Below are positions 1,591 to 29,340 of a stretch of DNA of 64,000 bases, one piece after another (position 1 is the stretch's first letter; each line of letters begins with the position of its first letter). Under the pieces are notes generated by a model, which worked only from the letters and a program-made list of their open reading frames with translations, searched no databases and was not told the DNA's origin. Source of the stretch: Dehalococcoidia bacterium (GTDB lineage: Bacteria; Chloroflexota; Dehalococcoidia; DSTF01; JACRBR01); contig JBBDXE010000025.1 of assembly GCA_040902505.1 (NCBI GenBank), positions 16,221-80,220 of the forward strand, read 5' to 3'. Made by a program: the position numbers and the translations under genes.

Positions 1591-2499
1591 CTACGTGCCC
1601 AGTGGCAAAACCCGAACCCGGCCTGCATCCAAGTCAAGCTCGACGCGGCCACCGCCCTGAGCGTTGATGTCGTTCCAAGCCCTGAAGCCCTGCATTATCG
1701 CGTCTTCCCACTCGCCGGCTGTTCGGCGACTCACTTCTAGGTGATCCGTCATCGTCTTGACCGTACGCAATAGCTCGTAGTCAAGCCGAATCAAGCCGCG
1801 AAGGAAGTCTCGCCGCTCCGCATAGCTGAACACCAAGGCAGTGATGCCTTCCTCGATGACGATTGCACGACCACCATCTTCCACCTCGTCAACTGTTGGG
1901 TCGCTTCTGCGCTTCCGGTCAAGAAACTTTCGTGTTAGCGGCGACCAGCCCAACACAGCGGCGTATGCCAGGTGCAGAACATCGTGGAATCGATACCCGT
2001 CTTCCACGTGACGATTGTCCGTGAGCGGATCTCCAAAGGGGGCACCATCGACGGTTGTCCTCGTGCGTGCCTCGCCACTTTCCGCGGCAAAGAACTCAGC
2101 GACCATTCGCCTAGAAAGCCGCTCGGTTGAGGGGAAACCCTCATCCAGCGATTGACGCGGGATCGGCAACTTCATCTGGTCGTGGCCTACTTGTTCCCAG
2201 CGCGCGCGACACTTCTGCAGATTGCCCTCTGCGACATCGGATAGGCGGAGCCCGAGTTTGGATGTCGAGCACGCGAGATACCAGAGGAGGTCGCCGAGTT
2301 CCTCGCGTGCCCTATCACGGAAGAGGAGGTACGCCTCACCGTCCCTCACATATTTCTTGTACTCGCTCAGGATCTCGCCCACCTCTCCAGCGAGCCCTAA
2401 GAGTGGAATCACGACGGCTGCAGCTGACTTCTCATCGCCTAGCGTCTTAGACACTTGATCCGTGTCAAGAGCCCTTGCCTGATACTCGTCTATGTCCAT
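1591..2499 (-). CDS. MazG-like all-alpha NTP pyrophosphohydrolase domain protein with uncharacterised C-terminal domain
   Basis: N-terminal region contains LGLAGEVGEILSEYKK...EELGDLLWYLA...NLQKCRARW, i.e. the EExxE/ELGDLL metal-binding helices of MazG/HisE-type pyrophosphatases. C-terminal ~170 aa unrecognised. Lies in the AT-richer island. Confidence 0.7.
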   Translation of the reverse strand: MDIDEYQARALDTDQVSKTLGDEKSAAAVVIPLLGLAGEVGEILSEYKKYVRDGEAYLLFRDRAREELGDLLWYLACSTSKLGLRLSDVAEGNLQKCRARWEQVGHDQMKLPIPRQSLDEGFPSTERLSRRMVAEFFAAESGEARTRTTVDGAPFGDPLTDNRHVEDGYRFHDVLHLAYAAVLGWSPLTRKFLDRKRRSDPTVDEVEDGGRAIVIEEGITALVFSYAERRDFLRGLIRLDYELLRTVKTMTDHLEVSRRTAGEWEDAIMQGFRAWNDINAQGGGRVELDLDAGRVRVLPLGT

Positions 2500-2603
2500 G
2501 GCCTACCTCCAGGTGGGACCGCGCATCCCCCTAGCTGCTACTGGAACTGCCGTGCATGTAGGCGCCAGCTTGCCAACGCCCGATCAAGGCGTAAACTGGC
2601 CAC

Positions 2604-3275
2604 GTGCAGTTCGAGCGCCGCGTGCTCTCGTTTGTCAGCTCCCTTACGGAAGCCGACTTGCCATCGCACTTCACGAATCCCTACAAGACCGGCCACACTG
2701 CTCGGAACCTCCTGCTCTTTCTCACACGGCGGGATCGTCTTGCTTGGACGCTCTTGGCGATCGGCGAGGCCCCTGGCTACCGCGGCGCAGTGATGTCAGG
2801 CGTCCCTCTCAGTTCTCTCGCAACGCTTGCGGATCCATGGGGCGATCCTTGGGAGTCGTTCGGTCCGTCCAAAGGGTATAGCTTCCCGCCGAACCCGTTG
2901 TACTGGCGAGAAGCAACGGCCACGATCATATGGGAATCCTTCGCGATGCACCTTGCCGACTCACCCCTTCCACTCACATGGAACGCCGTGCCATTTCATC
3001 CGCAGAAAAACGGCCGCGCTTCGAACGCGTCGCTGCGCGCAAATCAATTGCACATTGGCCAACCGTGGATCGAGCGGCTTCTCGAGCTCTTCCCAAACGT
3101 CTTCCCTGTTGCAGTTGGCCGGCGTGCCTGCGAAACGCTATGCCAGCTGAAGGTCGACCATGAGGCAATTCGCCATCCGTCACGAGGCGGGAAGCAAGAG
3201 TTCAGCATGGGACTCGCTCGTGTTCGCTCTCTGATGTCACCTCCTCCTGCAACGAGCTCGCTAACGGTCGCATGA
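2604..3275 (+). CDS. uracil-DNA glycosylase superfamily protein (family 4/5-like)
   Basis: Motif A AIGEAPGYRG (GE[AG]PG) about 55 aa from the N-terminus and motif B EAIRHPSRGG (HPS) near the C-terminus, with spacing as in the UDG fold. Confidence 0.65.
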   Translation: MQFERRVLSFVSSLTEADLPSHFTNPYKTGHTARNLLLFLTRRDRLAWTLLAIGEAPGYRGAVMSGVPLSSLATLADPWGDPWESFGPSKGYSFPPNPLYWREATATIIWESFAMHLADSPLPLTWNAVPFHPQKNGRASNASLRANQLHIGQPWIERLLELFPNVFPVAVGRRACETLCQLKVDHEAIRHPSRGGKQEFSMGLARVRSLMSPPPATSSLTVA

Positions 3276-3972
3276 CGCCGATCCTCCCGAGGCGCGCATC
3301 CGTGCTCACGACAACCAGCCCGCCGCAAGTGAGCCTGGACTCCGCCGCCACAAGTTGCTGCAATCGTGCTAAGCCAACGAAGTTACCATACGCTTTTTCA
3401 TGATAGTAATGGGAACGGTAGACAGCGGTCACAACCAGCTCGTCGGCATCGCGATGAAACTGAACTTCTGAGAGGCATGGGAACCCAACTCGTGCGATGG
3501 CCGTCCGTCCGGGGCGTTCAAGCACGATGGGCCCTGGATCTGCCCATTTGCCACCGTCTGGTGTTCGATGGTTGAGCGCATCGATCACATCCCTAATCTG
3601 ATTGACGTTGGTGCCGTCCCCTTCATAGTCCACCATGCGCCGAAAATACGAGTTGGTTGGCAACTTGGGTAAGAGACGGAAGCCGACTCGCTCCCAATCG
3701 ACTGCTCGTGCCACAGTTAGTGGCAAGATCGTGCGGGCGACGACCCTAACGCGATCTGTGGCAGCCGCGCCCAATGCAGCATCCAGACGGCGAGCAAACG
3801 CGGAGCAGTCAGCCTGCGGCTCGGCGATCGACACAACCAAATTACGGATCCGGTGACCCGGTTGTCTCAACAGCGCGAGCACCGCTGCTCTCCACGCATC
3901 CTCCAACGTGCGGGCATCGACCAGAACCGCACCCCTCACGGCACGGCTCCCGCGTCGGGAAGTACGCGACAA
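3202..3972 (-). CDS. divergent thymidylate synthase / dCMP hydroxymethylase-fold protein
   Basis: By-eye alignment to ThyA: VGFRLLPKLPT matches DGFPLVTTKR, TNVNQI matches TNIAYL, GFPCLSEVQF matches LPPCHALFQF (catalytic Cys), VYRSH matches LYQRSC, AYGNFVGLARL matches GLPFNIASYALL, CGGLVVVSTDARL matches VGDFVWTGGDTHL. An alternative GTG start at 3939 overlaps the upstream stop by 4 nt (GTGA). Confidence 0.65.
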   Translation of the reverse strand: MSRTSRRGSRAVRGAVLVDARTLEDAWRAAVLALLRQPGHRIRNLVVSIAEPQADCSAFARRLDAALGAAATDRVRVVARTILPLTVARAVDWERVGFRLLPKLPTNSYFRRMVDYEGDGTNVNQIRDVIDALNHRTPDGGKWADPGPIVLERPGRTAIARVGFPCLSEVQFHRDADELVVTAVYRSHYYHEKAYGNFVGLARLQQLVAAESRLTCGGLVVVSTDARLGRIGVMRPLASSLQEEVTSESEHERVPC

Positions 3973-4976
3973 TCACTCATTAGCTGCGGGGCCTTGGCCG
4001 CGAGCCGACGCGCCACGCTCTCGGTCACCGCTCTGAACACAGGCGCTCCCGCCGCCATGTTGTCGTCCCTCTTGGGCGGCCCAATTCTGCGCAGCACTCT
4101 GGCCTCTGCAGCTCCCAGCAACCTCAATGCCCGCAGCCGGCTGATCGTGGCGGCGTGACTGACCCCGAACCTAGATCCAAGCTCGTGAATCCGGTCCAGA
4201 TTCAGAGCCCGGTGGCCGAGGCACTCGCGCACTGCCCTCTGCGGTAGCAGGAACGCCGCCGCGAACACGTCCGCGCGCAACTCGATCCTCTGGCGGGGTC
4301 CCGGCCTTGGCAATTCGGCGGCAGCGCACGCGTATCCGCCGCCCTCGCGATCCAACAAGAAATGCGCTAATTCGTGGGCTAGTGTGAACCGCTGTCTTAC
4401 CGGTGGGTGGTTACTGTTGACAAGCACCGCACTCGATGCGCTGTCTGTAACCACTATGCACCCGGAAATCGACGAACTGACCGGAAGTCGGGCAAGCACC
4501 ACTCCCACGCCTGCCTCCTGAACGAATCCTGACAGTGGAATCACCGGATCCTCTGCTGACAACCCCGTTGCACCACGGAACCAACGTGCGGCCAGTTCGC
4601 CGGCTTGTACTGGAGGAAGCCGGGACACCCGTGGGGGAATAGATAGAGGCATCCAATGCGGATCTGATCCTAGCGCGGACTGAACGGCCGAGAACCAAGC
4701 AAGTTGCGGTTCGTCGTCCGCATGTATGGTTACGCCTCTTAGCCTCATTTTAGGTAGAACTGGACGGCCTCCCTCCCGCGGCGTCAGAAGCAGGTCTGGG
4801 GTTACAGCCAGCAGCGCCGCTAGCCTCACCAACTCCGCAGCCGTGACTGGTCTCGTACCCCGCTCCATACGGCTAACGACCGTCCGGTCGAGGCCTAAGG
4901 CTCTCGCTAGGTCAGACTGGTTCCAACCCCGGCGATAGCGCGCCTGCTGGATATTCCATCCAATTTGTGTGTCCAC
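3936..4976 (-). CDS. fused HTH-XRE DNA-binding / ImmA-IrrE (DUF955) metallopeptidase-domain regulator
   Basis: N-terminal QQARYRRGWNQSDLARALGLDRTVVSRMERGTRPVTAAELVRLAALL is a Cro/C1-type HTH. C-terminal AHELAHFLLD (HExxH) plus RADVFAAAFLLP is typical of ImmA/IrrE. A Pro/Arg-rich linker lies between the two domains. Confidence 0.75.
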   Translation of the reverse strand: MDTQIGWNIQQARYRRGWNQSDLARALGLDRTVVSRMERGTRPVTAAELVRLAALLAVTPDLLLTPREGGRPVLPKMRLRGVTIHADDEPQLAWFSAVQSALGSDPHWMPLSIPPRVSRLPPVQAGELAARWFRGATGLSAEDPVIPLSGFVQEAGVGVVLARLPVSSSISGCIVVTDSASSAVLVNSNHPPVRQRFTLAHELAHFLLDREGGGYACAAAELPRPGPRQRIELRADVFAAAFLLPQRAVRECLGHRALNLDRIHELGSRFGVSHAATISRLRALRLLGAAEARVLRRIGPPKRDDNMAAGAPVFRAVTESVARRLAAKAPQLMSDCRVLPDAGAVP

Positions 4977-5245
4977 GGACGCAGACTAGACGACGGCGCA
5001 CGAGTCATGCAATAGATCTCTCGATAGTGTGCTAGATCAGCACATCACGCGGGACGCGATTCTCTTGAAACTGCCATCCGCCCATCCTTGACCCCTTACA
5101 CCCCCCGCCGCTACCCTTCCCCCACGATGAACCTCCACCGCATGGCGATGCCTCTGCCCCGGGAGAGCCGGGGCGCCCGTCTGGGATAGCGCCAGCATCC
5201 CCCGGCCACCCCCTGCGGCGGCCGGAGCCACGGAGGTCACACGCC

Positions 5246-6493
5246 ATGCCGTTCGCCCAGTCCCTGCGTTGCCGCGAGTGCAACCGTGAGTATCCCCTCG
5301 AGCCCCTGCACGTCTGCGAGTTCTGCTTCGGCCCCCTCGAAGTCGCCTACGACTACACCGCGATGCACCGCACCGTCACCCGCGAGTCCATCGAGCGCGG
5401 GCCCAACTCCGTCTGGCGCTACGCAGACCTCCTCCCCGCCGACCCCGCTCAGGCCGTCGACATCAACGCCGGCTTCACCCCCCTCGTCCGCGCCCGCAAC
5501 CTGGGCGAGCACCTGGGCCTGCGCAACCTCTGGCTCAAGAACGACTGCGCCAACCCCACCTGGTCCTTCAAGGACCGCGTCGTCACCGTCGCCGCGACGA
5601 AGGCCCGCGAGTTCGGCTTCGACACCCTCGCCTGCGCCTCCACCGGCAACCTCGCGAACAGCGTCTCCGCCCACGCCGCCGCCGCCGGCCTGAAATCGAT
5701 CGTCTTCATCCCCCACGACCTCGAGCGCGGCAAGATCCTCGGCTCCAGCGTCTACGGCGCCACCCTCGTCGCCGTCGACGGCAACTACGACGACGTCAAC
5801 CGCCTCTGCTCCGAGCTGGCCGACAGCTACCCGTGGGCGTTCGTCAACATCAACATGCGGCCGTACTACGCCGAGGGCAGCAAGACCCTCGGCTACGAGG
5901 TCGCCGAACAGCTCGGCTGGCGCGCCCCGGAGCACGTCGTCGTGCCGATGGCGTCGGGCTCGCTGTACGTGAAGATCTGGAAGGGGCTGCAGGAGCTGGC
6001 CCGCCTCTGGCTCATCGACAGCGTGCAGACGAAGATGTCCGGCGCCCAGGCCCGCGGCTGCTCCCCCATCGTCACCGCCTACGAGGCCGGCACCACCAAC
6101 GTCCGCCCCGTCCGGCCCGACACCATCGCCAAGTCGCTGGCCATCGGCAACCCCGCCGACGGCTACTACGCCCTCAAGGTCATGCAGGAGTCCGGCGGCT
6201 ACGGCGTCGCCGCCTCCGACGACGAGATCATCGACGGGATCAAGCTCCTCGCCGAGTCCGAGGGCATCTTCGCCGAGACCGCCGGCGGCGTCGTCACCGC
6301 CTGCCTGAAGAAGCTCGCCCAGGCCGGACGCATCGCCCCCGACGAGGTCACCGTCGCCTACATCACCGGCTCCGGCCTGAAGACGCAGGAGGCCGTCGAG
6401 GACCACGTCGCCCAGCCCGTCCACATCGCCCCCACCATCGCGTCGTTCGAGGAGCTGGTGCGCCCCCGCGAGCGCGAGCTGGCGGCATCATGA
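5246..6493 (+). CDS. threonine synthase family PLP enzyme (ThrC/MetM-like) with N-terminal Cys4 zinc ribbon
   Basis: CRECNREYPLEPLHVCEFC zinc ribbon. PLP lysine region NPTWSFKDR, Gly-rich loop ASTGNLANS and an ITGSGLK C-terminal motif are typical of ThrC-family fold-type II enzymes. Confidence 0.85.
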   Translation: MPFAQSLRCRECNREYPLEPLHVCEFCFGPLEVAYDYTAMHRTVTRESIERGPNSVWRYADLLPADPAQAVDINAGFTPLVRARNLGEHLGLRNLWLKNDCANPTWSFKDRVVTVAATKAREFGFDTLACASTGNLANSVSAHAAAAGLKSIVFIPHDLERGKILGSSVYGATLVAVDGNYDDVNRLCSELADSYPWAFVNINMRPYYAEGSKTLGYEVAEQLGWRAPEHVVVPMASGSLYVKIWKGLQELARLWLIDSVQTKMSGAQARGCSPIVTAYEAGTTNVRPVRPDTIAKSLAIGNPADGYYALKVMQESGGYGVAASDDEIIDGIKLLAESEGIFAETAGGVVTACLKKLAQAGRIAPDEVTVAYITGSGLKTQEAVEDHVAQPVHIAPTIASFEELVRPRERELAAS

Positions 6494-6691
6494 AGCCGCA
6501 CCCCACCATCGCTCACCCCTCCCACCACCCCTTCCCTTCAGGGAAGGGGCTGGGGTTAGGTCCGGGGCGGAGCGGGGCCGTAGCAATCCCTGACGTCGGC
6601 GGCGTCTGTGGTTCCCCAACTCCCACGGCCCCCGTACACTGCGACCTGCACGCCCGCGCGCCCCGCGCGCACACCCACGAGCGAGGCCCAC

Positions 6692-6934
6692 ATGGCACGC
6701 CAGCGCGTTAAGTTCACCTTCCCGCAAGAACTCATCACCCTGCCCCTCATCTACGAGCTGGGCAAGAACTTCACCCTCGTCACCAACATCCGCCGCGCCG
6801 ACGTCACCGAGGACCGCGGCTGGATCGTCCTCGAGGTCGAGGGCGACCTGACGGAGATCGAGCGGGCGCTGGACTGGGTCTCGGCGAAGGGCGTCCGCGT
6901 CGACCCCGTCCCCGGCGACATCGTCGAAGGCTAA
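6692..6934 (+). CDS. NIL-domain small protein
   Basis: 81 aa: MARQRVKFTFPQELITLPLIYELGKNFTLVTNIRRADVTEDRGWIVLEVEGDLTEIERALDWVSAKGVRVDPV. Ferredoxin-like NIL domain pattern, as at the MetN C-terminus. Confidence 0.6.
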   Translation: MARQRVKFTFPQELITLPLIYELGKNFTLVTNIRRADVTEDRGWIVLEVEGDLTEIERALDWVSAKGVRVDPVPGDIVEG

Positions 6935-7030
6935 CGAGCGGTCAGCCATCAGCCAGTCAGCAGTCAGCAGCGACCGATGAGCAGCCACCACGGACCAGCA
7001 ACCGGCGACCAGTAACCAGGACACCAGACC

Positions 7031-7312
7031 ATGGCCCAGATCCGCATCCCGGCACCGCTCCGCAAGCTCACGAACGACATCGAGATCGTGCAGGCGGAGG
7101 CCGCCACCCTCGCCGAGGCCATCGACCGCCTCGAGGGCGACTTCCCCGGCATGAAGGAGCGCCTCTGCGACGAGACCGGCCAGCTCCGCCGCTTCGTCAA
7201 CGTGTACGTCAACGGCGAAGACGTCCGCTTCCTCGACAACCTCGGCACGCCGCTGAAGCCCGGCGACGAGGTGAGCATCGTCCCCGCCGTCGCGGGCGGG
7301 TCCGGGGCGTAG
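7031..7312 (+). CDS. MoaD/ThiS/CysO-family sulfur-carrier protein (GG followed by SGA extension)
   Basis: 93-aa beta-grasp pattern FVNVYVNGEDV...LKPGDEVSIVPAVAGGSGA. The Gly-Gly is followed by three extra residues. Confidence 0.7.
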   Translation: MAQIRIPAPLRKLTNDIEIVQAEAATLAEAIDRLEGDFPGMKERLCDETGQLRRFVNVYVNGEDVRFLDNLGTPLKPGDEVSIVPAVAGGSGA

Positions 7313-7469
7313 CGCCGGCCCGGTCAGCGCGCCAGCCGTCGTCAGGCGGTCAGCCCCCGCGTCCCCCGTGGCGAGGGGGCTCTTGATTGGCCAATTGCAT
7401 TCGGCGAAAATCCGGGCCTTTCGGGGGTCTGCGGATTCGGGGCGGGGGGCGTTTGGCTTGATTGGGTTA

Positions 7470-7870
7470 GCGCGCATGGGCGTCGACCTCACCCCCGGCC
7501 TTCGGCCTGGCCTCGCCGAGGCGAGTCTGCGACCTCTCCACACGATGGAGAGGGAGGAGTGGTGGAGGGCGTTCATTGGGGGCCTCCGCGGTCGAGGGAC
7601 TGGAGGTGGCGGAGGATGGTGTTGCGGAGGCGCATCTTGCGGGCGACGTCGAGGGGCGGGGCGCGGCGAACCTCACCCCCGGCCTTCGGCCTGGCCCTCT
7701 CCACATCGTGGAGAGGGAGGAGGGGAGCGGGGCTTTCGTCGAGCGCACCGCCGGCCGGGGGCCCACACCCGATTTCGGCGTCGAGGGACTGGAGGTGGAG
7801 GTAGATGGCGTTGCGGAGGCGCTCTTTGCGGACGGGGTCGAGGGGCGGGCGGCGGCGGGGGGCACGGCGG
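7470..7870. repeat. tandem direct repeat, about 190-bp unit x ~2 copies with internal hairpins
   Basis: Unit acctcacccccggccttcggcctggcc...ctctccaca[ct][cg][ag]tggagagggaggag...tcgagggactggaggtgg.ggaggatggtgttgcggaggcgc.tcttgcgg at about 7476-7665 and 7666-7860. ggccttcggcc and ctctcca/tggagag are hairpin-forming. Spans the 3' end of CDS 7573-8232 and continues beyond its stop. Confidence 0.6.
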
Positions 7871-8232
7871 AGGGGCCGACCGGTGAGGGCGTCGCGGTTG
7901 GAGGCGTGCTCGTAGTCCGCGACGGAATTCTGGTGGCGGTTGGCGGCGTCGTCGCGGGCGGCGTCGTCGAGGGCGGTGGTGATGCGGCGGCGGAAGTTGA
8001 GGGCGACGGGGCGCTCGCCGAGGATGCGGAGGGCGTCGATGACGGTCTCGCGGATGCGGCCGTCGCGGAGGGCGTTGCGGCGGCCGAGGCCGAGGAGGAC
8101 GCTGCGGGCGACGGGGTCCTGCATGAGGGCGTAGATGACGGCGCGGACGCGGGGGGAGTAGCGGCCGGACTTGAGGCCGTTGAGGTTGCCTTTGGGGGCG
8201 CCGGCGCCGGGGCGGGATCCTCCGTGGGGCAT
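7573..8232 (-). CDS. hypothetical protein, paralog A (conserved N-terminus GAGAPKGNLNxLKSGRYSPRVRAV; C-terminus encoded by tandem repeats)
   Basis: N-terminal ~110 aa are homologous to the ORF at 11915-12421; the 5' ends are also similar at the DNA level. The C-terminal half reads through the 190-bp tandem repeat (PLLPLHDVERARPKAGGEV repeated), so the true stop is uncertain. Confidence 0.45.
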   Translation of the reverse strand: MPHGGSRPGAGAPKGNLNGLKSGRYSPRVRAVIYALMQDPVARSVLLGLGRRNALRDGRIRETVIDALRILGERPVALNFRRRITTALDDAARDDAANRHQNSVADYEHASNRDALTGRPLRRAPRRRPPLDPVRKERLRNAIYLHLQSLDAEIGCGPPAGGALDESPAPLLPLHDVERARPKAGGEVRRAPPLDVARKMRLRNTILRHLQSLDRGGPQ

Positions 8233-8237
8233 CGCGA

Positions 8238-8333
8238 GTCTCGCAGTCTGTCAGTCTGCCGGTCTGTCAGTCGGTCAGTCGGTCAGTCGGTCAGTCTGTC
8301 GGGCGGTCAGGCGGTCAGGCGGTCAGGCGGTCA
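8238..8333. repeat. octamer microsatellite (GGTCAG[TG]C)n, about 11 copies, immediately 5' of the start of CDS 7573-8232
   Basis: tctgtcagtctgccggtctgtcagtcggtcagtcggtcagtcggtcagtctgtcgggcggtcaggcggtcaggcggtcaggcggtca. Confidence 0.7.
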
Positions 8334-8571: not shown

Positions 8572-9381
8572 ATGACCGACGACCTGACCCGCCGCGCCCT
8601 CGCCGTGAACGAGGCCCAGCTCGCGCTCGCCAGCCTCGCCTTCGACACCGACGGCGCCCACTTCGTCCGCAACCCGGACTTCCCCCGCGTGCACGACGCC
8701 AACCACGCGTCGCACGTCACGGCCGCCACCCCCGACGAGATCGACCGCCTCCTCGCGCGCGTCGAGCGGGAGTTCGCCGGCCTCGCGCATCGCGTCTTCC
8801 ACACAGACGCCACCACGCCACCCGCCTTCGAGGCGCGGCTCGCGCTCGAGGGCTACGCGCCCAGTGACACTATCGTGATGCTCCTCGAGGGACCGTTGCG
8901 ATTCTTCCGAGGAAGGACCCCGGCCTGCGACATCCGCCCCGCCGGCGATGAGGCCAGATGGGCCGCGTACGCCGCCCTCCGCCTGCTCGACGGGGACGAG
9001 TACCTGCGCCGCACCGGCCGCAGCCCCGACCCCGCCTTCACCGCCGAGATGACCACCAACCGCCGCCGCATGTCGCCGCCCGTGCGCGTCTGGCTCGCCC
9101 ACGCCGATGGCGCTCCGGTCGGCTACTGCAGCTCGTGGGAGGGGACGGAGGGCGTCGGCCTGGTCGAGGACCTGTTCGTGCACCCCGACGCGCGCCGCCG
9201 CGGGATCGCCACCGCGCTGCTGCACCACTGCGTCGCCGACGCTCGCGCGTCGATGCCGACCGGCGACGGCCCCGTCGTCATCACCGCCGACCCCACCGAT
9301 ACGCCCGGCCGCATCTACGCCAACCTCGGCTGGCGCCCCACCGCCCTCAAGCGCTCCTGGCTGCGCATCGTCGAGCCGTGA
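8572..9381 (+). CDS. GNAT family N-acetyltransferase
   Basis: Motif A VGLVEDLFVHPDARRRGIATALL (acetyl-CoA binding Q/RxxGxG/A) in the C-terminal half of a 269-aa ORF. Confidence 0.8.
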   Translation: MTDDLTRRALAVNEAQLALASLAFDTDGAHFVRNPDFPRVHDANHASHVTAATPDEIDRLLARVEREFAGLAHRVFHTDATTPPAFEARLALEGYAPSDTIVMLLEGPLRFFRGRTPACDIRPAGDEARWAAYAALRLLDGDEYLRRTGRSPDPAFTAEMTTNRRRMSPPVRVWLAHADGAPVGYCSSWEGTEGVGLVEDLFVHPDARRRGIATALLHHCVADARASMPTGDGPVVITADPTDTPGRIYANLGWRPTALKRSWLRIVEP

Positions 9382-9995: not shown

Positions 9996-10088
9996 CATCA
10001 CACCCGCGTCCGCCTGGGGCTGTATCGGCGTGCCGGCGAGGGCCTGTACACTGGCCTTAAGCGCGTCGCAGGCCGAGGCATCGTCGGT

Positions 10089-11820
10089 GTGGATCGCCAT
10101 GGCGTCGGTGTGAATGAGGATGGACATGTGACGACCGAGCAAGGCAGTGCGACGCTGGCGCAGTCAGCCCTGGCCCTTATCGTCCTGACCCTGGTCTTTG
10201 TGTCAGGCATTGGACTTCTCGCGTTTGCATCTTTTGTTGCATTCCGAGATGGCTTCGCTAACGCCCTCGTTGTTCTGTATATGCTCGGCATACTTTGTCT
10301 CGCTGGCACGCTCGTTGCCCTAAACATGGTCGGCTCTCTGACAGTGAAGCACAATGATACCGAGGTCAAACTCGAACAACCTCGGCCGCGGCCCGCGTCA
10401 TCAAACCCAAACGTTGAGGCAGCCCCCGGCACTGCTGAACCTGAAAGAAGGAGGGACGATTCCGCCAGCGAGGCTGCCACGGCAGCTGCTCCAACAGATG
10501 GCGGCAAGAGCTTGTTCTCCGAAGCAATCGACGCGTGGGCAAATCATGACTATGCGTCATTCGACCTGAAGATGATCGCCTACATAGAACAGCAGCAGGA
10601 GGGAGATAAGGCTACGTTCGACGCCTTTCGGCTGTCTTGGCTGTATGAGGCCGGCCAAGGACGCCGACTCCAAGAATTGCATGCCCTCCGCAGGGACAAT
10701 CCCTCTGCTCCCGCGGTTCTGCTTCGACTCGCCGAGGCCTACATGTTTACTGATCAGCCAAAGGTCGCCCTAGATCTCTACGAGCAGGGCGCCGCCCTTT
10801 CAGGCCTCTCTGTGGATCATCGCCGTGAAATTCTGACCGGCCAAGTTCGCGCGCGGATCAAACTTAAGGAATACGAGGCGTCTGAAGGACGCCTGAGGGT
10901 TGCTGAGTTGGAAGACCCAGCACCCCAGTGGCAACACTCCATCCACAAACTGTTCGCCGAGGTCTACGACGCTTGGGATGATCAAGTGCGTAAGCATTGG
11001 CATCTTGAGCAGGCGGGTGGAGGCGAATCCCGGCGACCTCTCTACACGGTTCGACCTGGCCTACAGCTATGGACGTTCCGGCGACAGCCTCTTGTCTCTG
11101 TACCACTACGAGATCTTACGCCGCCAACGCGCTTACGCCATGGAGATAAATAATCTCGGCGTTGCTCTCCAACAGATGGACATGCCAATAACCGCGGCCT
11201 TCTACTACAAGGAAGCGATTGACAAAGGGAACACGTTGTCTTCGGCGAACCTCGCTCGGGTCATGCTCAAGAGTGGCCTCGTGGTCGAAGCGAAACAAGT
11301 GTTGGACGCGGCGCTCTCCCTCAAGGACAGCGAGGGTGAAGCCGTCGAAGTCGATGACAACGTTCATGAAGCACACGCTGTAATCACGCGGGCTGAGGAG
11401 GAAGAGCGCGAGAGGATGATACGAATTGTTGAGGCCAGCCGCCTAGAGCGGCAACTCTTTCTTGCATCGATGGAGAAAGATCAAGTCGCAACAACCATTC
11501 TTCGAGACGACGAGTTCTTGGGTGAGTGGGACACGAACTTTGGCAAGCTAACATTTGCCAAGGAAGGACCCGATTACTCGGCAGCCTTCAAGACGGACGA
11601 CCTTTGGGATTGGTCGCTCAGTGGTGGAATCGATCGCAAAAGGAGAACCTTTACGTTCCGATGGAGCACCAACAAGCACGACTACCGCCGTCCCGATAAC
11701 GACGAAGGCACTGGCTACTTCGTGTTCCGCGAGAACACGTTCGAGGGCTTCCTTCGGAACAGGCCTGACAAGGGAGAAGTCATGGCCGTTACGGGCCGCC
11801 ACCCCTCAGACACCCCCTAA
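10089..11820 (+). pseudogene. membrane-anchored TPR-repeat protein, apparently frameshifted near 11000-11020 (two overlapping ORFs 10089-11153 and 10900-11820)
   Basis: GTG start. Two N-terminal TM helices (LALIVLTLVFVSGIGLLAFASFVAF; LVVLYMLGILCLAGTLVAL), then TPR-like helices (LLRLAEAYMFTDQPKVALDLYEQ). The +1-frame ORF continues with further TPR-like repeats (DLAYSYGRSGDSLLSLYHYEI; NNLGVALQQMDMPITAAFYYKEAIDKGN). AT-richer than surroundings. Confidence 0.5.
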
Positions 11821-11914: not shown

Positions 11915-12421
11915 ATGCCAAGAGGAGGCCGCCGCCCCGGAGCCGGAGCCCCGAAGGGCAACCTCAACGCCCTCAAGTCCGGGCGCTACTCCCCGCGCGT
12001 CCGCGCCGTCCTCTACGCTCTCGTCGATGACCCCACCACCCGCTCCGTCCTCCTCCAGGTGGGCCTCCGCGGCGCCGCCCCCCGCGGCCGCCTGCGTGAC
12101 ACCATCACCGACACCATCCGCCTCCTCCACGACCGCCCCGTCTCCGACGAGTTCCGGGCCCGCGTCCGCGCCCTCCTCGGCCGCGACGACGACGCCCGGA
12201 TCGCCCGCCGCGTCCAGAGCGCCATGGACAGCTACCGCAAAGGGACCGGTCAGAGCGCCCTCGCCGAAGGTCCCCTCCGCCGGGGCACCACGCCCGCGGT
12301 AAAGCCGCCGCGCCCGCCGCGCGTCCGCTACCGTCCCGTCCTCCCCCCCGGGCCGCATCTTCTGGGTGGACCTGGAGGAGCCGCCGGAAGCCTCCACCAC
12401 CCCGCCCGAAGCGTGAGGTGA
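11915..12421 (+). CDS. hypothetical protein, paralog B (N-terminus GAGAPKGNLNALKSGRYSPRVRAVLYAL)
   Basis: 168-aa ORF. N-terminal ~110 aa are homologous to paralog A (7573-8232, opposite strand). C-terminus is Pro/Arg-rich. Confidence 0.45.
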   Translation: MPRGGRRPGAGAPKGNLNALKSGRYSPRVRAVLYALVDDPTTRSVLLQVGLRGAAPRGRLRDTITDTIRLLHDRPVSDEFRARVRALLGRDDDARIARRVQSAMDSYRKGTGQSALAEGPLRRGTTPAVKPPRPPRVRYRPVLPPGPHLLGGPGGAAGSLHHPARSVR

Positions 12422-12523: not shown

Positions 12524-12612
12524 CCTCCGGCCTCCCCGCCCCGGGCATGCGCGGTCATCTGTGTAATCTGTGGATGGGCGCGGCTATACTGGCGGTTTCC
12601 GAGAGGGGCGCA

Positions 12613-13631
12613 TGGTGACGACGGTCGGGATTCTGAACGTCACGGGGTACGCGGGGAGCGAGCTGGCGCGGCTGGTGCACGGGCATCCGGGGGTGCGGCT
12701 GGCGGGGGTGACGGGGCGGTCGGCGGCGGGGAAGCGGCTGGGGGAGGTGTTCCCGCACCTCTGGGCGCTGGACCTGCCGATCGTGGAGGAGCTGCCGGCG
12801 GTGGACGTGGTGCTCTCGACGCTGCCCCACGCGGCGGCGGCGGCGCAGCTGGTCCCGTACATCGAGGCGGGGGTGCCCGTCATCGACCTGAGCGCCGACT
12901 TCCGGCTGAAGCGCGTCGAGGCGTACGAGGCGGCCTACCAGACGACGCATCCGGCGGCGGGGCTGCTGGGGCGGGCGGTGTACGGGCTGCCGGAGCTGCA
13001 CCGGGGGGAGATCCCGCCGGCGAAGCTCGTCGCGGCGCCGGGGTGCCACGCGGCGGGGGTGATCCTGGCGCTTGCGCCGGCGATCGCGCGGGGGCTGATC
13101 GAGCCGGAGGTGATCGCCGACACGAAGACAGGGCTGTCGGGGGCGGGGCGGACGCTGGGGCTGAGCGTGCACTTCTCGGAGGCGGACGAGTCGGTGGCGC
13201 CGTACGGGCTGGAGGGGCACCGGCATCACCCGGAGATGGTGCAGGAGCTGTCGCTGCTGGCGGAGGCGCCGGCGCCCTCGATCACGTTCGTGCCGCACTA
13301 TGTGCCGATGACACGCGGCATCCTCTCGACGTGCTACGGGACGCTGCGGCGGCCGATGACGCGGGAGCAGCTGCGGGAGGCGTATCGCGAGTTCTACGCC
13401 GATGCGCCGTTCGTGCACGTCGCGGACGCGCCGCCATCGACGAAGCACGTGGCGGGGACGAACTACTGCATCGTGCACCCGACGATCGACCAGACGACGG
13501 GGCGGGCGGTGCTGGTGAGCGCGCTCGACAATCTGGGGAAGGGTGCGGCGGGGGCGATGGTGCAGTGCCTGAACCTGATGCTGGGGCTGCCGGAAGACAC
13601 GGGGCTGCAGCAGCTCGGGATGTTCCCGTAG
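12613..13631 (+). CDS. argC: N-acetyl-gamma-glutamyl-phosphate reductase
   Basis: MVTTVGILNVTGYAGSELARLV start, catalytic Cys region AAPGCHAAGVILALAP, C-terminal NLGKGAAGAMVQCLNLMLG. First gene of the argC-argJ-argB operon. Confidence 0.9.
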
Positions 13632-14861
13632 GTGGCGAAGGCGCGCCCGGGCGGCGCGGTCAGGCTCATCGACGGGGGGAGCGTCACCAGCCCGCAGGGG
13701 TTCGTCGCCGGGGGCGTGTACGCGGGCATCAAGGCGGCGGGCAAAGGCAAGCTGGACCTGGGCATCCTGGCGTCGGAGCGGCCGGCGGCCTGCGCGGCGA
13801 TGTTCACGCGGAGCACGGTCAAGGGCTTTGGGGTGCTGGTGTCGGCGATGCACGCGCGGAGGGGCGCGGCGCGGGCGGTGATCGTGAACTCCGGGTGCTC
13901 GAACGTGGCGACGGGGCGGCAGGGGATGCTGGACGCGCTGGAGATGGCGGAGCTGGCAGCGGCGCGGCTGGGCATCGCGGGGGCGGAGGTGCTGGTGGGG
14001 AGCACCGGCGTCATCGGGAGGCCGCTGCCGATGCCGCTCATCCGGGACGGGGCGCCGCGCATCAAGCTGGGGGCGGACGGGGGGGCGGCGTTCGCGCGGG
14101 CGATCATCACGACGGACACCTACGCGAAGACGCTGGCGGTGCGCTTCCGGGCGGGCGGGCGGGAGTATCGCATCGGGGCGGCGGCGAAGGGGTCGGGGAT
14201 GATCCATCCGGACATGGCGACGATGTTCTGCTTCCTGACGACTGACGCGCCGGTGGAGCTGGCGTTCCTGCGGCGGACGCTCCGGGAGGCCGTCGGCGAC
14301 TCGCTGAACATGATCAGCGTGGACAACGACACGAGCACCAGCGATACGGTGGCGATCTTCGCGAACGGGGCGGCGGGAGGCGCGGCGATCTACGCGGGGT
14401 CGCCGGGGGCGGCGGCGTTCGCCTCGGCGCTGCCGGATGTGTGCGTGCGCGTCGCGAAGCTGCTGGCACGGGACGGCGAGGGGGCGAAGAAGCTCATCGA
14501 GGCGCGGGTAGAGGGGGCGGGGAGCGCGGGGGAGGCGCGGGCGGCGGCGCGTACGATCACGGCGTCGCCGCTGGTGAAGACGGCGGTGCACGGCAACGAC
14601 CCGAACTGGGGGCGGCTGCTTATGGCGGTGGGGCGGAGCGGGGCGGGCATCGACCTGGAGCGGGCGCGGGCGTGGATCGGGCCGACGATGGTGTATCGGG
14701 GGGAGCCGGTGCGCTTCGACGAGCGGGCGGTGAGCCGGTACCTGCGGGGGGAGGAGGTGGTGCTGCGGGTGGATCTGGGGCGTGGCTTCGACAGCGCGAC
14801 GGCGTGGGGGTGTGACATGACGCCGGAGTACGTGCACATCAATGCGGACTATCGGACGTGA
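13632..14861 (+). CDS. argJ: bifunctional glutamate N-acetyltransferase / amino-acid acetyltransferase
   Basis: GTG start 1 nt after the argC stop. GFVAGGVYAGIKAAGKG, the autoprocessing region ATMFCFLTTDAPV (ATML-type Thr) and a HGNDPNWGR motif. Confidence 0.9.
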   Translation: MAKARPGGAVRLIDGGSVTSPQGFVAGGVYAGIKAAGKGKLDLGILASERPAACAAMFTRSTVKGFGVLVSAMHARRGAARAVIVNSGCSNVATGRQGMLDALEMAELAAARLGIAGAEVLVGSTGVIGRPLPMPLIRDGAPRIKLGADGGAAFARAIITTDTYAKTLAVRFRAGGREYRIGAAAKGSGMIHPDMATMFCFLTTDAPVELAFLRRTLREAVGDSLNMISVDNDTSTSDTVAIFANGAAGGAAIYAGSPGAAAFASALPDVCVRVAKLLARDGEGAKKLIEARVEGAGSAGEARAAARTITASPLVKTAVHGNDPNWGRLLMAVGRSGAGIDLERARAWIGPTMVYRGEPVRFDERAVSRYLRGEEVVLRVDLGRGFDSATAWGCDMTPEYVHINADYRT

Positions 14862-14906
14862 GCGGGGAGTGGTGAGTTCTGAGCCTTGAGCCGTGAGCAG
14901 GCTGGG

Positions 14907-15686
14907 ATGAGCGAACGTCCTATCGTGGTGAAGGTGGGGGGGTCGACGCTGGGCGCGCACGACACGTCGCTGCGGGATATCGCGGGGGCGCGGCGCGCGG
15001 GACGGGCGGTGGTGGTGGTGCACGGGGGAGGGGCGACGGTCAGCGCGTGGCTGGAGCGGATGGGGATGACGGCGACGTTCGTGCGGGGGCTGCGGGTCAC
15101 GGACGCGGCGACACTCGACGTGGTGGTGGCGGTGCTGGCGGGGCTGGTGAATACGCAGCTGGTGGCGGAGCTGGGGGCGCTGGGCGCGCCGGCAGTCGGG
15201 CTGAGCGGCGCCGATGGGATGATGCTGCAGGCGCACCGCTTCGACGAGGAGCTGGGGTTCGTGGGGCGGATCCACGCCGTCAACGCGCGGCCGGTCGAAG
15301 AGCTGCTGCGGCTGGGACAGCTGCCGCTGATCGCGCCGATCGCGGTGGCGACGGACGCGGCGGGCGGGCAGTTGCTGAACACGAACGCGGATACGGCGGC
15401 GGGGGAGCTGGCGGCGGCACTGCACGCGGAGCAGCTGGTGTTCCTGACGGACGTCGAGGGGGTGCTGGACGAGGAGAAGCGGGTGCTGCCGCGTCTGACG
15501 GCGGCGCAGGCGGGGGAGCTGGTGGCGTCGGGCGTGGCGAGTGGCGGGATGGTCCCGAAGCTCGAGGCGGCGGTGCGGGCAGCGTCATCCGGGTGCGCGA
15601 CGCGCATCGTCGACGGGACGGCGGAGGGGGCGCTGGCGCGGGTGCTGCGCGGGGAGGCGGTGGGGACGACGGTGGCGGCGGGGTGA
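14907..15686 (+). CDS. argB: acetylglutamate kinase
   Basis: IVVKVGGSTL...VVVVHGGG...NTNADTAAGELAAAL...GGMVPKLEAA, the amino-acid kinase family signature. Confidence 0.9.
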   Translation: MSERPIVVKVGGSTLGAHDTSLRDIAGARRAGRAVVVVHGGGATVSAWLERMGMTATFVRGLRVTDAATLDVVVAVLAGLVNTQLVAELGALGAPAVGLSGADGMMLQAHRFDEELGFVGRIHAVNARPVEELLRLGQLPLIAPIAVATDAAGGQLLNTNADTAAGELAAALHAEQLVFLTDVEGVLDEEKRVLPRLTAAQAGELVASGVASGGMVPKLEAAVRAASSGCATRIVDGTAEGALARVLRGEAVGTTVAAG

Positions 15687-29087: not shown

Positions 29088-29177
<90 letters not shown>

Positions 29178-29253: not shown

Positions 29254-29340
29254 TGGCGGAGAGGGTGGGATTCGAACCCACGAGGCTCATCGCCTACCGC
29301 TTTTCGAGAGCGGCACCTTCAACCACTCGGACACCTCTCC
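29254..29340 (-). tRNA. tRNA-Ser (anticodon CGA)
   Basis: Reverse complement GGAGAGGTGTCCGAGTGGTTGAAGGTGCCGCTCTCGAAAAGCGGTAGGCGATGAGCCTCGTGGGTTCGAATCCCACCCTCTCCGCCA. Anticodon loop CTCGAAA, long variable arm, encoded CCA. Confidence 0.85.

Follow-up and report, generated by a model that had tools for sequence, protein, structure and literature searches.

In the CysM/CysO/Mec/MoeZ system of M. tuberculosis, a protein thiocarboxylate donates sulfur to a pyridoxal phosphate (PLP) enzyme that uses an O-phospho amino acid. The carrier thiocarboxylate acts together with a JAMM hydrolase and an E1-like activator; CysM is of the CysK fold type and is not a ThrC homolog, and the product is cysteine. 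To our knowledge, CysM/CysO has no NIL-domain partner. Similarly, the HcyS/HcyD/HcyF/MetY system of Wolinella succinogenes forms homocysteine from a carrier thiocarboxylate after a JAMM protease removes an extension that follows the Gly-Gly of the carrier. There the condensing enzyme is the O-acetylhomoserine sulfhydrylase MetY, and no ThrC homolog takes part. The Streptomyces albulus pathway described by Hasebe et al. (2024) is summarized in later papers, according to which MetM converts O-phosphohomoserine to homocysteine using thiocarboxylated MetO, with Mec and MoeZ as helpers and an S-adenosylmethionine (SAM) riboswitch upstream of metM. The same summaries note that databases frequently give MetM the wrong label, threonine synthase. 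Here we describe a candidate operon of this kind in a 64,000-nucleotide stretch of DNA from a Dehalococcoidia bacterium (contig JBBDXE010000025.1; hereafter the window, in whose coordinates positions are given), which probably encodes a homocysteine synthase of the MetM/MetO type that depends on a protein thiocarboxylate.

The segment from 5127 to 7380 is most likely a single operon that carries, in order, a leader upstream open reading frame (uORF), a ThrC-like enzyme, a NIL-domain protein, a MoaD-like carrier and a terminator. As in S. albulus, a PLP enzyme homologous to ThrC, with the annotation of a threonine synthase, lies beside a MoaD/ThiS-type carrier, and SAM riboswitch control is seen in the actinobacterial orthologs of the window enzyme. 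In contrast, the window has an additional gene, for NIL, inserted between those of the enzyme and the carrier, and it has a uORF with Met codons but no SAM riboswitch. Furthermore, the S. albulus pathway depends on Mec (JAMM) and MoeZ (E1), and neither gene lies near the window operon. With the HcyS system the window shares a carrier whose C terminus extends beyond Gly-Gly.

An original prediction, made from the letters of the DNA alone, had named a ThrC-fold enzyme with a Cys4 ribbon, a NIL protein and a carrier ending in AGG-SGA, and had read them as a MetM/MetO-like candidate rather than as a plain threonine synthase. All three open reading frames (ORFs) lie on the + strand where they had been placed, and both the ORFs and the family models bear out their identities. 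The MetM/MetO-like reading is supported by comparison, namely by the clade of the enzyme, by carrier synteny and by the SAM riboswitches of its orthologs, and none of the comparative tests favored a plain threonine synthase. The third-position GC content of the three ORFs (0.90-0.98) is typical of genuine genes in this 70% GC window. Moreover, close homologs of the enzyme, the NIL protein and the carrier number in the thousands, and therefore the arrangement is not a chance feature.

The enzyme gene (5246-6493, + strand) encodes a 415-amino-acid PLP protein of the ThrC fold that matches the Pfam PALP family with 245 bits, and its N-terminal Cys4 zinc ribbon matches the Pfam 'NinF' model at residues 8-32. 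An alignment of diverse relatives, used to scan a single genome from each species, returned 80 loci at 58-76% identity. These loci span Chloroflexota, Acidimicrobiia and other Actinomycetota, Nitrospirota, Nitrospinota, cyanobacteria including Microcystis, Planctomycetia, Deltaproteobacteria, Elusimicrobia, Methylomirabilota, Aquificaceae and others. Two Micromonosporaceae loci were reached separately, through a homology search seeded with a Micromonosporaceae protein, which returned Micromonosporaceae only, with no Streptomyces among the results. Relatives vary little or not at all at C9, C12, C24 and C27 of the ribbon, and K109, the Schiff-base lysine of SFKDR, is invariant among them.

A distance-based neighbor-joining tree, in which sequences from the Protein Data Bank (PDB) are represented by their aligned regions only, places the window enzyme in a clade (56-76% identity) that excludes characterized and solved threonine synthases in 100 of 100 bootstraps. 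Its clade mates are SAM-riboswitch-linked, carrier-linked, cyanobacterial and Nitrospira proteins, and the solved enzymes from B. subtilis, T. thermophilus, A. aeolicus and M. tuberculosis, all threonine synthases, fall outside it. Likewise, the window enzyme is 56-63% identical to the SAM-riboswitch-linked proteins, whereas its identity to the solved threonine synthases in the PDB is 36-39%. The clade differs from ThrC by 21 specific substitutions in addition to the added zinc-ribbon domain. Specifically, R160 of Thermus ThrC is replaced by Tyr, with an Arg three residues earlier, the ThrC sequence VNS-VNPxRxEGQKT becomes VNINMRPYYAEGSKT, and GNPASW becomes GNPADG. The clade keeps both the PLP lysine and the phosphate loop, ASTGN. 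An Aquificaceae genome carries the MetM-like type, and the solved threonine synthase of Aquifex aeolicus (PDB 2zsj) is of the canonical type, a pairing that fits two distinct paralog families.

A phylogeny set against MetM and ThrC had been proposed as a check in the original prediction. The outcome is that the enzyme stands apart from characterized ThrC and together with carrier-linked proteins, and that the MetM half of the placement rests on a link through Microcystis. The window enzyme is 58% identical to a Microcystis homolog. A published account puts the identity between the M. aeruginosa enzyme and S. albulus MetM at 51.6% and reports that a metO-like gene adjoins the M. aeruginosa gene.

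Among more distant ThrC-like relatives (37-40% identity), some carry C-terminal LeuA allosteric or PadR domains (P0329, P0341, P0376; P0300, P0328, P0374). A fusion of ThiF to PALP is seen in one representative protein (P0377).

The gene neighborhood provides a second line of evidence. A MoaD-like carrier gene lies directly 3′ of the enzyme gene in 73 of 82 genome loci from about 12 phyla. The window carrier (7031-7312, + strand) is a 93-amino-acid, MetO-like β-grasp protein of the MoaD/ThiS type that matches ThiS with 70 bits, SAMP1 with 66.3 (cut-off 60) and moaD_arch with 54.8 (cut-off 49.5). It ends in IVPAVAGG followed by Ser-Gly-Ala. The majority of carriers stop at Gly-Gly and many from Chloroflexota add one to seven residues, such that tails range from 0 to 7 residues and up to a whole NIL domain. 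ThiF genes are present in 14 and JAB genes in 9 of the 82 loci, including those of Nitrospirota and others. In the Nitrospiraceae locus L039, the order is a CysK-size PALP gene, ThiF, enzyme, carrier, NIL, ThiF and JAB. Judging from its gene content, this locus might unite thiocarboxylate routes to cysteine and to homocysteine in one island. An 80-amino-acid ORF is also present upstream of the enzyme gene in L039 (3166-8161), along with the CysK/CysM-size PALP and ThiF genes.

The original prediction held that extended carriers require a JAMM protease, and the data fit this view, in that a JAB gene is found at each of the three loci in which carrier and NIL domain are fused. JAB genes occur even beside carriers that already end in Gly-Gly, which suggests Mec-like product release besides tail trimming. 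In the window, the absence of a JAMM gene that had been noted is confirmed by tblastn and by Pfam scans of about 50 ORFs, as is discussed below.

A third line of evidence comes from gene control elements. Each of the 10 actinobacterial loci tested (two Micromonosporaceae and eight Acidimicrobiia or Actinomycetes) has a SAM-I riboswitch immediately 5′ of the enzyme gene and on its strand, with scores of 53-73 bits. The deltaproteobacterial locus L070 also has a SAM-I riboswitch (96 bits). The SAM riboswitch is thus a lineage feature rather than a strict requirement of MetM-like systems. We also considered whether a NIL gene and a SAM riboswitch are mutually exclusive alternatives, and this is ruled out by L070, which has the riboswitch together with a carrier-NIL fusion.

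Could the window enzyme be an ordinary threonine synthase, as annotated, with a MoaD-like gene that serves molybdopterin or another pathway and a NIL gene that is an unrelated neighbor? Several observations point in this direction and count against assignment to the MetM type. The enzyme passes the NCBIfam threonine synthase model PRK08197 (NF006050), although narrowly (308.8 versus a cut-off of 303), and scores 276 on the TIGR00260 threonine synthase model (cut-off 167). All public annotations carry this label, and the PLP lysine and ASTGN loop are conserved. The Microcystis homolog is reported to form threonine weakly in vitro and to have threonine deaminase activity, and to show no clear homocysteine formation with sulfide. 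The orthology of the window enzyme to S. albulus MetM is indirect, via the Microcystis sequence. In addition, neither tblastn with JAB, ThiF and ThrC seeds nor Pfam scans of about 50 window ORFs revealed a JAMM, ThiF/E1 or second ThrC gene in the 64-kb window, and neither a SAM riboswitch nor a member of any other Rfam family is found near the operon, even at E<=10.

Regardless, we consider an ordinary threonine synthase highly improbable. Its clade is separated from characterized ThrC in every bootstrap replicate, and the NCBIfam threonine synthase models evidently also capture the MetM-like clade. Orthologs are found under SAM riboswitches and not under threonine-type control, and carrier, ThiF and JAB genes are syntenic with the enzyme across phyla. 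The occurrence of both types in the Aquificaceae comparison likewise fits two separate paralog families. The Pfam scans found no molybdopterin cofactor (Moco) genes among the approximately 50 window ORFs scanned, and the conserved partner of the carrier is the ThrC-like gene. Finally, the leader described below is rich in Met codons, not in Thr or Ile codons.

A second alternative accepts the thiocarboxylate carrier but assigns a different product to the enzyme, either cysteine made from O-phosphoserine in the manner of CysM/CysO or some other thiol metabolite. The substrate is not readable from the sequence, and ThrC-fold relatives include cysteate synthase, an enzyme that uses O-phosphoserine and whose model is a weak match to the window enzyme. 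Cysteine desulfurase or Cys/Met-PLP genes also lie beside some loci. However, the SAM riboswitches point to methionine over cysteine, and the CysM model scores only 37.9 against the window enzyme (cut-off 394). Locus L039 has a separate CysK/CysM-size PALP gene with its own ThiF gene, which suggests a division of labor. Moreover, the characterized relative MetM uses O-phosphohomoserine, according to the later summaries of that work. We therefore regard a different sulfur product as improbable and favor homocysteine synthesis.

The component that sets this locus apart from the S. albulus system is the NIL protein, which matches Pfam PF09383 with 46.7 bits (cut-off 24). A mechanically called ORF begins at GTG 6608, and this start is ruled out because 120 homologs are about 80 amino acids long and begin with MA(K/R)QRVKF. 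For the same reason, we assign the NIL gene to 6692-6934 (+ strand). Its product is a stand-alone protein of 80 amino acids that belongs to the NIL family and, unlike the NIL domain of MetN, is not appended to the ATPase of a methionine ABC transporter.

The NIL gene adjoins the enzyme gene in 33 of the 82 genome loci. Its place differs between phyla: in Chloroflexota it separates the enzyme gene from the carrier gene, and in Nitrospirota, Planctomycetia, Deltaproteobacteria, Elusimicrobia and Methylomirabilota it follows the carrier gene. In many loci, its start is a few bases from the enzyme stop codon or overlaps it. A metagenome scan with NIL yielded 80 loci, in which a ThrC-like gene is immediately upstream in 75, is cut off by a contig end in 4 and is absent in 1. 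Thus, a ThrC-like gene is directly 5′ of NIL in 75 of the 76 metagenome loci that can be evaluated. Carrier, Gly-Gly and NIL are fused in frame in L033 (6288-6803), L043 (6274-6846) and L070 (6275-6790). At one such junction, IIPAIAGG|SFLKRRVMLTFP, the NIL domain begins directly after the Gly-Gly of the carrier.

At other loci the enzyme and NIL genes occur with no carrier gene. There are 21 such loci (at least 19 from metagenomes, plus L013 and L015). A cysteine desulfurase gene (Aminotran_5) follows NIL in 11 of them (L110, L137-L139, L145-L147, L154-L156 and L163), at about 3244-4830 in most and further downstream in L138 and L156, and a NifU gene (NifU_N), generally located after it, is also present in 7. 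An AIR-synthase-like gene follows NIL in 9 carrier-less loci, and a Cys/Met-PLP gene lies just 5′ of the enzyme gene in 8 (L110, L138, L145-L147, L151, L154 and L163). By their gene content, these variants suggest an alternative sulfur supply. Because NIL stays with the enzyme at carrier-less loci, its constant partner is the enzyme and not the carrier. Judged by its gene neighborhoods, NIL is a third, tightly linked component that would partner the enzyme. We found no account in the searchable literature that links a NIL domain to MetM.

In the Acidimicrobiia loci L059 (6466-6711), L061 (9804-10124) and L062 (about 10000-10238), a stand-alone NIL gene does not adjoin the riboswitch-enzyme-carrier unit but lies about 3.5 kb farther downstream. 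In L061, the one of these three whose intervening genes were scanned, NIL follows GroEL and chlorite-dismutase-like genes and adjoins a weak PP-loop (NAD_synthase-like) ATPase gene.

What might this small protein do? Although a single-sequence phmmer search of the PDB with NIL gave nothing meaningful, the NIL family profile matches the C2 domain of MetN (3dhx) at E=4e-9. An AF2 model (pLDDT 75.7) has a β-α-β-β-α-β fold, and the best PDB matches to this model by Foldseek are MetN C2 domains (6cvl, 3dhx), with ACT domains next. In the alignment, N32 (at least 90% conserved) corresponds to MetN N295, and the invariant A36 corresponds to A299. N295 hydrogen-bonds the bound L-Met, and the N295A mutation abolishes binding; A299 resides on a strand whose register shifts (PMC6233128). 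The window NIL and the C2 domain of E. coli MetN in the MetNI importer therefore have in common their Pfam family, their fold and this Asn and Ala. They differ in that C2 is the C-terminal domain of an ABC ATPase whereas NIL is a free 80-amino-acid protein.

By analogy, NIL is most likely a small ACT-like, methionine-binding dimer that would feed methionine status back on the enzyme. Two observations count against this role. First, four residues of a MetN loop are missing from NIL and an invariant Arg takes the place of the MetN Ile (I297), so that NIL may bind a ligand other than methionine. Second, NIL is absent beside the cyanobacterial and most actinobacterial genes, so that the family as a whole does not depend on it. 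A role as a persulfide carrier was also considered and is ruled out, since the family alignment contains no conserved cysteine.

NIL domains are known from another homocysteine-forming, sulfur-inserting system, that of L-aspartate semialdehyde sulfurtransferase (MA1821/MA1822, and DUF39 in Desulfovibrio). Papers on this archaeal aspartate-semialdehyde route treat the NIL domain as a methionine sensor or feedback element. The chemistry and partner are unrelated, and there NIL is fused to a 4Fe-4S ferredoxin, whereas in the window it stands alone beside a PLP enzyme. The recurrence of NIL in a system otherwise so different could also be taken to favor a structural or adaptor subunit within the same homocysteine pathway, one on which activity would depend and which might dock carrier-COSH or the persulfide of a cysteine desulfurase on the enzyme, or stabilize the enzyme. 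Such a subunit would explain why NIL stays with the enzyme whether the sulfur module is a carrier or a cysteine desulfurase with NifU. It is also consistent with the fusion of NIL to the carrier in three genomes, and with the near or overlapping gene junctions that are expected of stoichiometric subunits. However, without a conserved cysteine NIL would be unable to carry sulfur itself, and its absence from cyanobacterial and most actinobacterial loci makes it dispensable for catalysis in the family. Furthermore, the MetN residues that are tied to methionine binding are conserved. We consider an adaptor function a credible but rather unlikely alternative, and favor NIL as a methionine-responsive partner of the enzyme.

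If NIL reports on methionine at the protein level, then how is gene expression controlled where no SAM riboswitch is present? Alignment of the regions upstream of the enzyme gene exposes a conserved small ORF, whose window copy (5127-5189, + strand) encodes MNLHRMAMPLPRESRGARLG, a candidate Met-codon leader peptide. In 10 Chloroflexota loci, and also in metagenome relatives, a uORF with the sequence [R/L/T]-M-[A/I/F]-M-[P/T/L/S] lies at the same position, between -76 and -137 relative to the start of the enzyme gene. Both ATG codons of the motif are kept and the middle codon is variable. Elsewhere, ATGNNNATG occurs in only four loci, three from outside Chloroflexota and the Dehalococcoidia locus L063, at scattered positions.

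The leader is predicted to form a helix that covers the start of the enzyme gene. In the minimum-free-energy fold, the Met-Ala-Met codons (5142-5150) pair with 5238-5247. The 5′ arm of this predicted anti-initiation helix spans 5140-5154 and overlaps these codons, and the 3′ arm (5234-5249) comprises the spacer after a GGAGG Shine-Dalgarno sequence along with the start codon of the ThrC-like gene. Within the arms, 5′-CGCCAUGC-3′ (5241-5248) is complementary to 5′-GCAUGGCG-3′ (5140-5147). The duplex has a predicted energy of -16.7 kcal/mol and ranks first against 96 other leader windows. Similar results are obtained with 12 independent loci from Chloroflexota and metagenomes, where the Met-X-Met window gives the best duplex with the enzyme start region when compared with about 100 other leader windows.

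Leader-peptide control is long established for the trp, thr and his leaders, for ermC-type translational attenuation and for the polycysteine uORFs of mycobacteria. As in these attenuators, the window has a short uORF enriched in codons for the amino acid presumed to be regulated, and a helix that would couple translation of the uORF to that of the gene. Unlike them, its leader has two internal Met codons only, and its helix lies over the start of the gene with no evident terminator. The searchable literature gave us no account of a comparable Met-codon leader. The modeled pairing makes this leader a candidate methionine-sensing translational attenuator that may substitute for the SAM riboswitch in a Chloroflexota subclade. 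Its case is weakened by the fold of the window leader as a single sequence, which has a z-score of only -1.76, and by three of the first 10 loci (L007, L008 and L013), in which the helix is weak or absent. A sigma-70 promoter read by eye at 5088-5117 (TTGACC/TACCCT) is unsupported by a consensus scan. A leaderless uORF is a suggestion only.

The layout of the genes, their homology and synteny, the gene fusions, the riboswitches linked to orthologs and the predicted RNA pairing are shown by the comparisons above. The substrates, the sulfur chemistry, the binding of a ligand by NIL and the direction of regulation are inferred from the families involved, and they would combine in the following manner. 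A JAMM/Mec-type peptidase encoded elsewhere in the genome would remove the Ser-Gly-Ala tail of the carrier, and a ThiF/MoeZ-type enzyme, likewise encoded elsewhere, would adenylate and sulfurate the exposed Gly-Gly to yield carrier-COSH. The PLP enzyme would then eliminate phosphate from O-phospho-L-homoserine and add the thiocarboxylate sulfur in a γ-replacement reaction, releasing homocysteine from which methionine would be made. NIL would act as a methionine-binding regulatory subunit of this enzyme, much as C2 does in the MetNI importer. Through the leader, methionine probably governs expression as well. When Met-tRNA is scarce, ribosomes pausing at the Met codons of the uORF would unmask the start site of the enzyme gene.

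Pathways of this type are not new, since MetM/MetO was published in 2024. What appears to be new in this variant is NIL as a partner of the enzyme, with a gene position that differs between phyla and with the methionine-contacting Asn of MetN C2 conserved, as well as its fusion to carriers, the other sulfur modules and the Met-codon leader. The original prediction noted neither the tight link of NIL to the enzyme nor the leader. We offer a broader model tentatively, with somewhat more doubt than conviction. The conserved core would be a two-subunit enzyme, made up of the ThrC-like PLP protein and the 80-amino-acid NIL protein, which would receive sulfur either from a MetO-type thiocarboxylate or, in lineages that lack a carrier gene, from cysteine desulfurase/NifU. 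NIL would be a methionine-responsive or obligatory subunit, in some bacteria carrier-GG-NIL precursors would have to be cut by JAMM proteases in the manner of ubiquitin-like proteins, and a Met-codon leader would mask the enzyme start in one Chloroflexota subclade.

Two further features complete the operon. The spacer between the enzyme and NIL genes (6494-6691) is 198 nucleotides long, compared with mostly 0-80 nucleotides in relatives, and contains a perfect 10-base-pair hairpin, CCCCTTCCCT-TC-AGGGAAGGGG (6528-6549, + strand). A repeat check found a single copy of this hairpin in the window, which rules out a repeated element. A terminator-like GC hairpin followed by a T-rich tail (7361-7380, + strand) probably marks the end of the operon.

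Just upstream of the operon is an island of lower GC content (1591-4976; about 0.60 versus 0.70). It carries a gene for a MazG plus MazG_C protein (1591-2499, - strand), two ORFs of no known family (2604-3275, + strand; 3202-3972, - strand) and a gene for a helix-turn-helix plus M78 peptidase protein (3936-4976, - strand) that resembles the CapH/CapP and RmrA regulators of defense systems. The island may be a defense or mobile element. Downstream, two paralogous ORFs of no known family (7573-8232, - strand; 11915-12421, + strand), both starting MP.GG.RPGAGAPKGNLN.LKSGRYSPRVRAV, form inverted arms of 304 nucleotides at 73% identity around a 3.7-kb segment with a GNAT gene (8572-9381) and TPR-like ORFs of low GC content (10089-11820). 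A tandem duplication of about 185 nucleotides (7486-7860), which includes a 27-nucleotide exact repeat at 7486 and 7670 and 78-nucleotide copies at 7591 and 7780, falls within the first of these ORFs or antisense to it. Short GTCAG/CAGTC-type repeats occur at 6940-7000, 7320-7350 and 8237-8300. Farther downstream are an argC-argJ-argB cluster (12570-15686), whose equivalent in the relative L001 lies near the operon there, on the opposite strand, and two tRNA genes on the - strand (29091-29177 and 29257-29340).

Thousands of genes annotated as 'threonine synthase' in Chloroflexota, Nitrospirota, cyanobacteria, actinobacteria and other phyla probably make homocysteine. This label distorts predictions of methionine and threonine auxotrophy for uncultured bacteria. 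NIL may be a missing component for reconstituting or regulating MetM-like enzymes, and in the carrier-NIL fusions nature provides a test of whether bacterial precursors are processed by JAMM proteases. If the proposed role of NIL is true, then one small sensor domain would be tied to three methionine systems, namely MetNI import, the anaerobic aspartate-semialdehyde route and the thiocarboxylate route. Likewise, if the Met-codon leader functions as proposed, methionine would join the few amino acids that are sensed by leader peptides.

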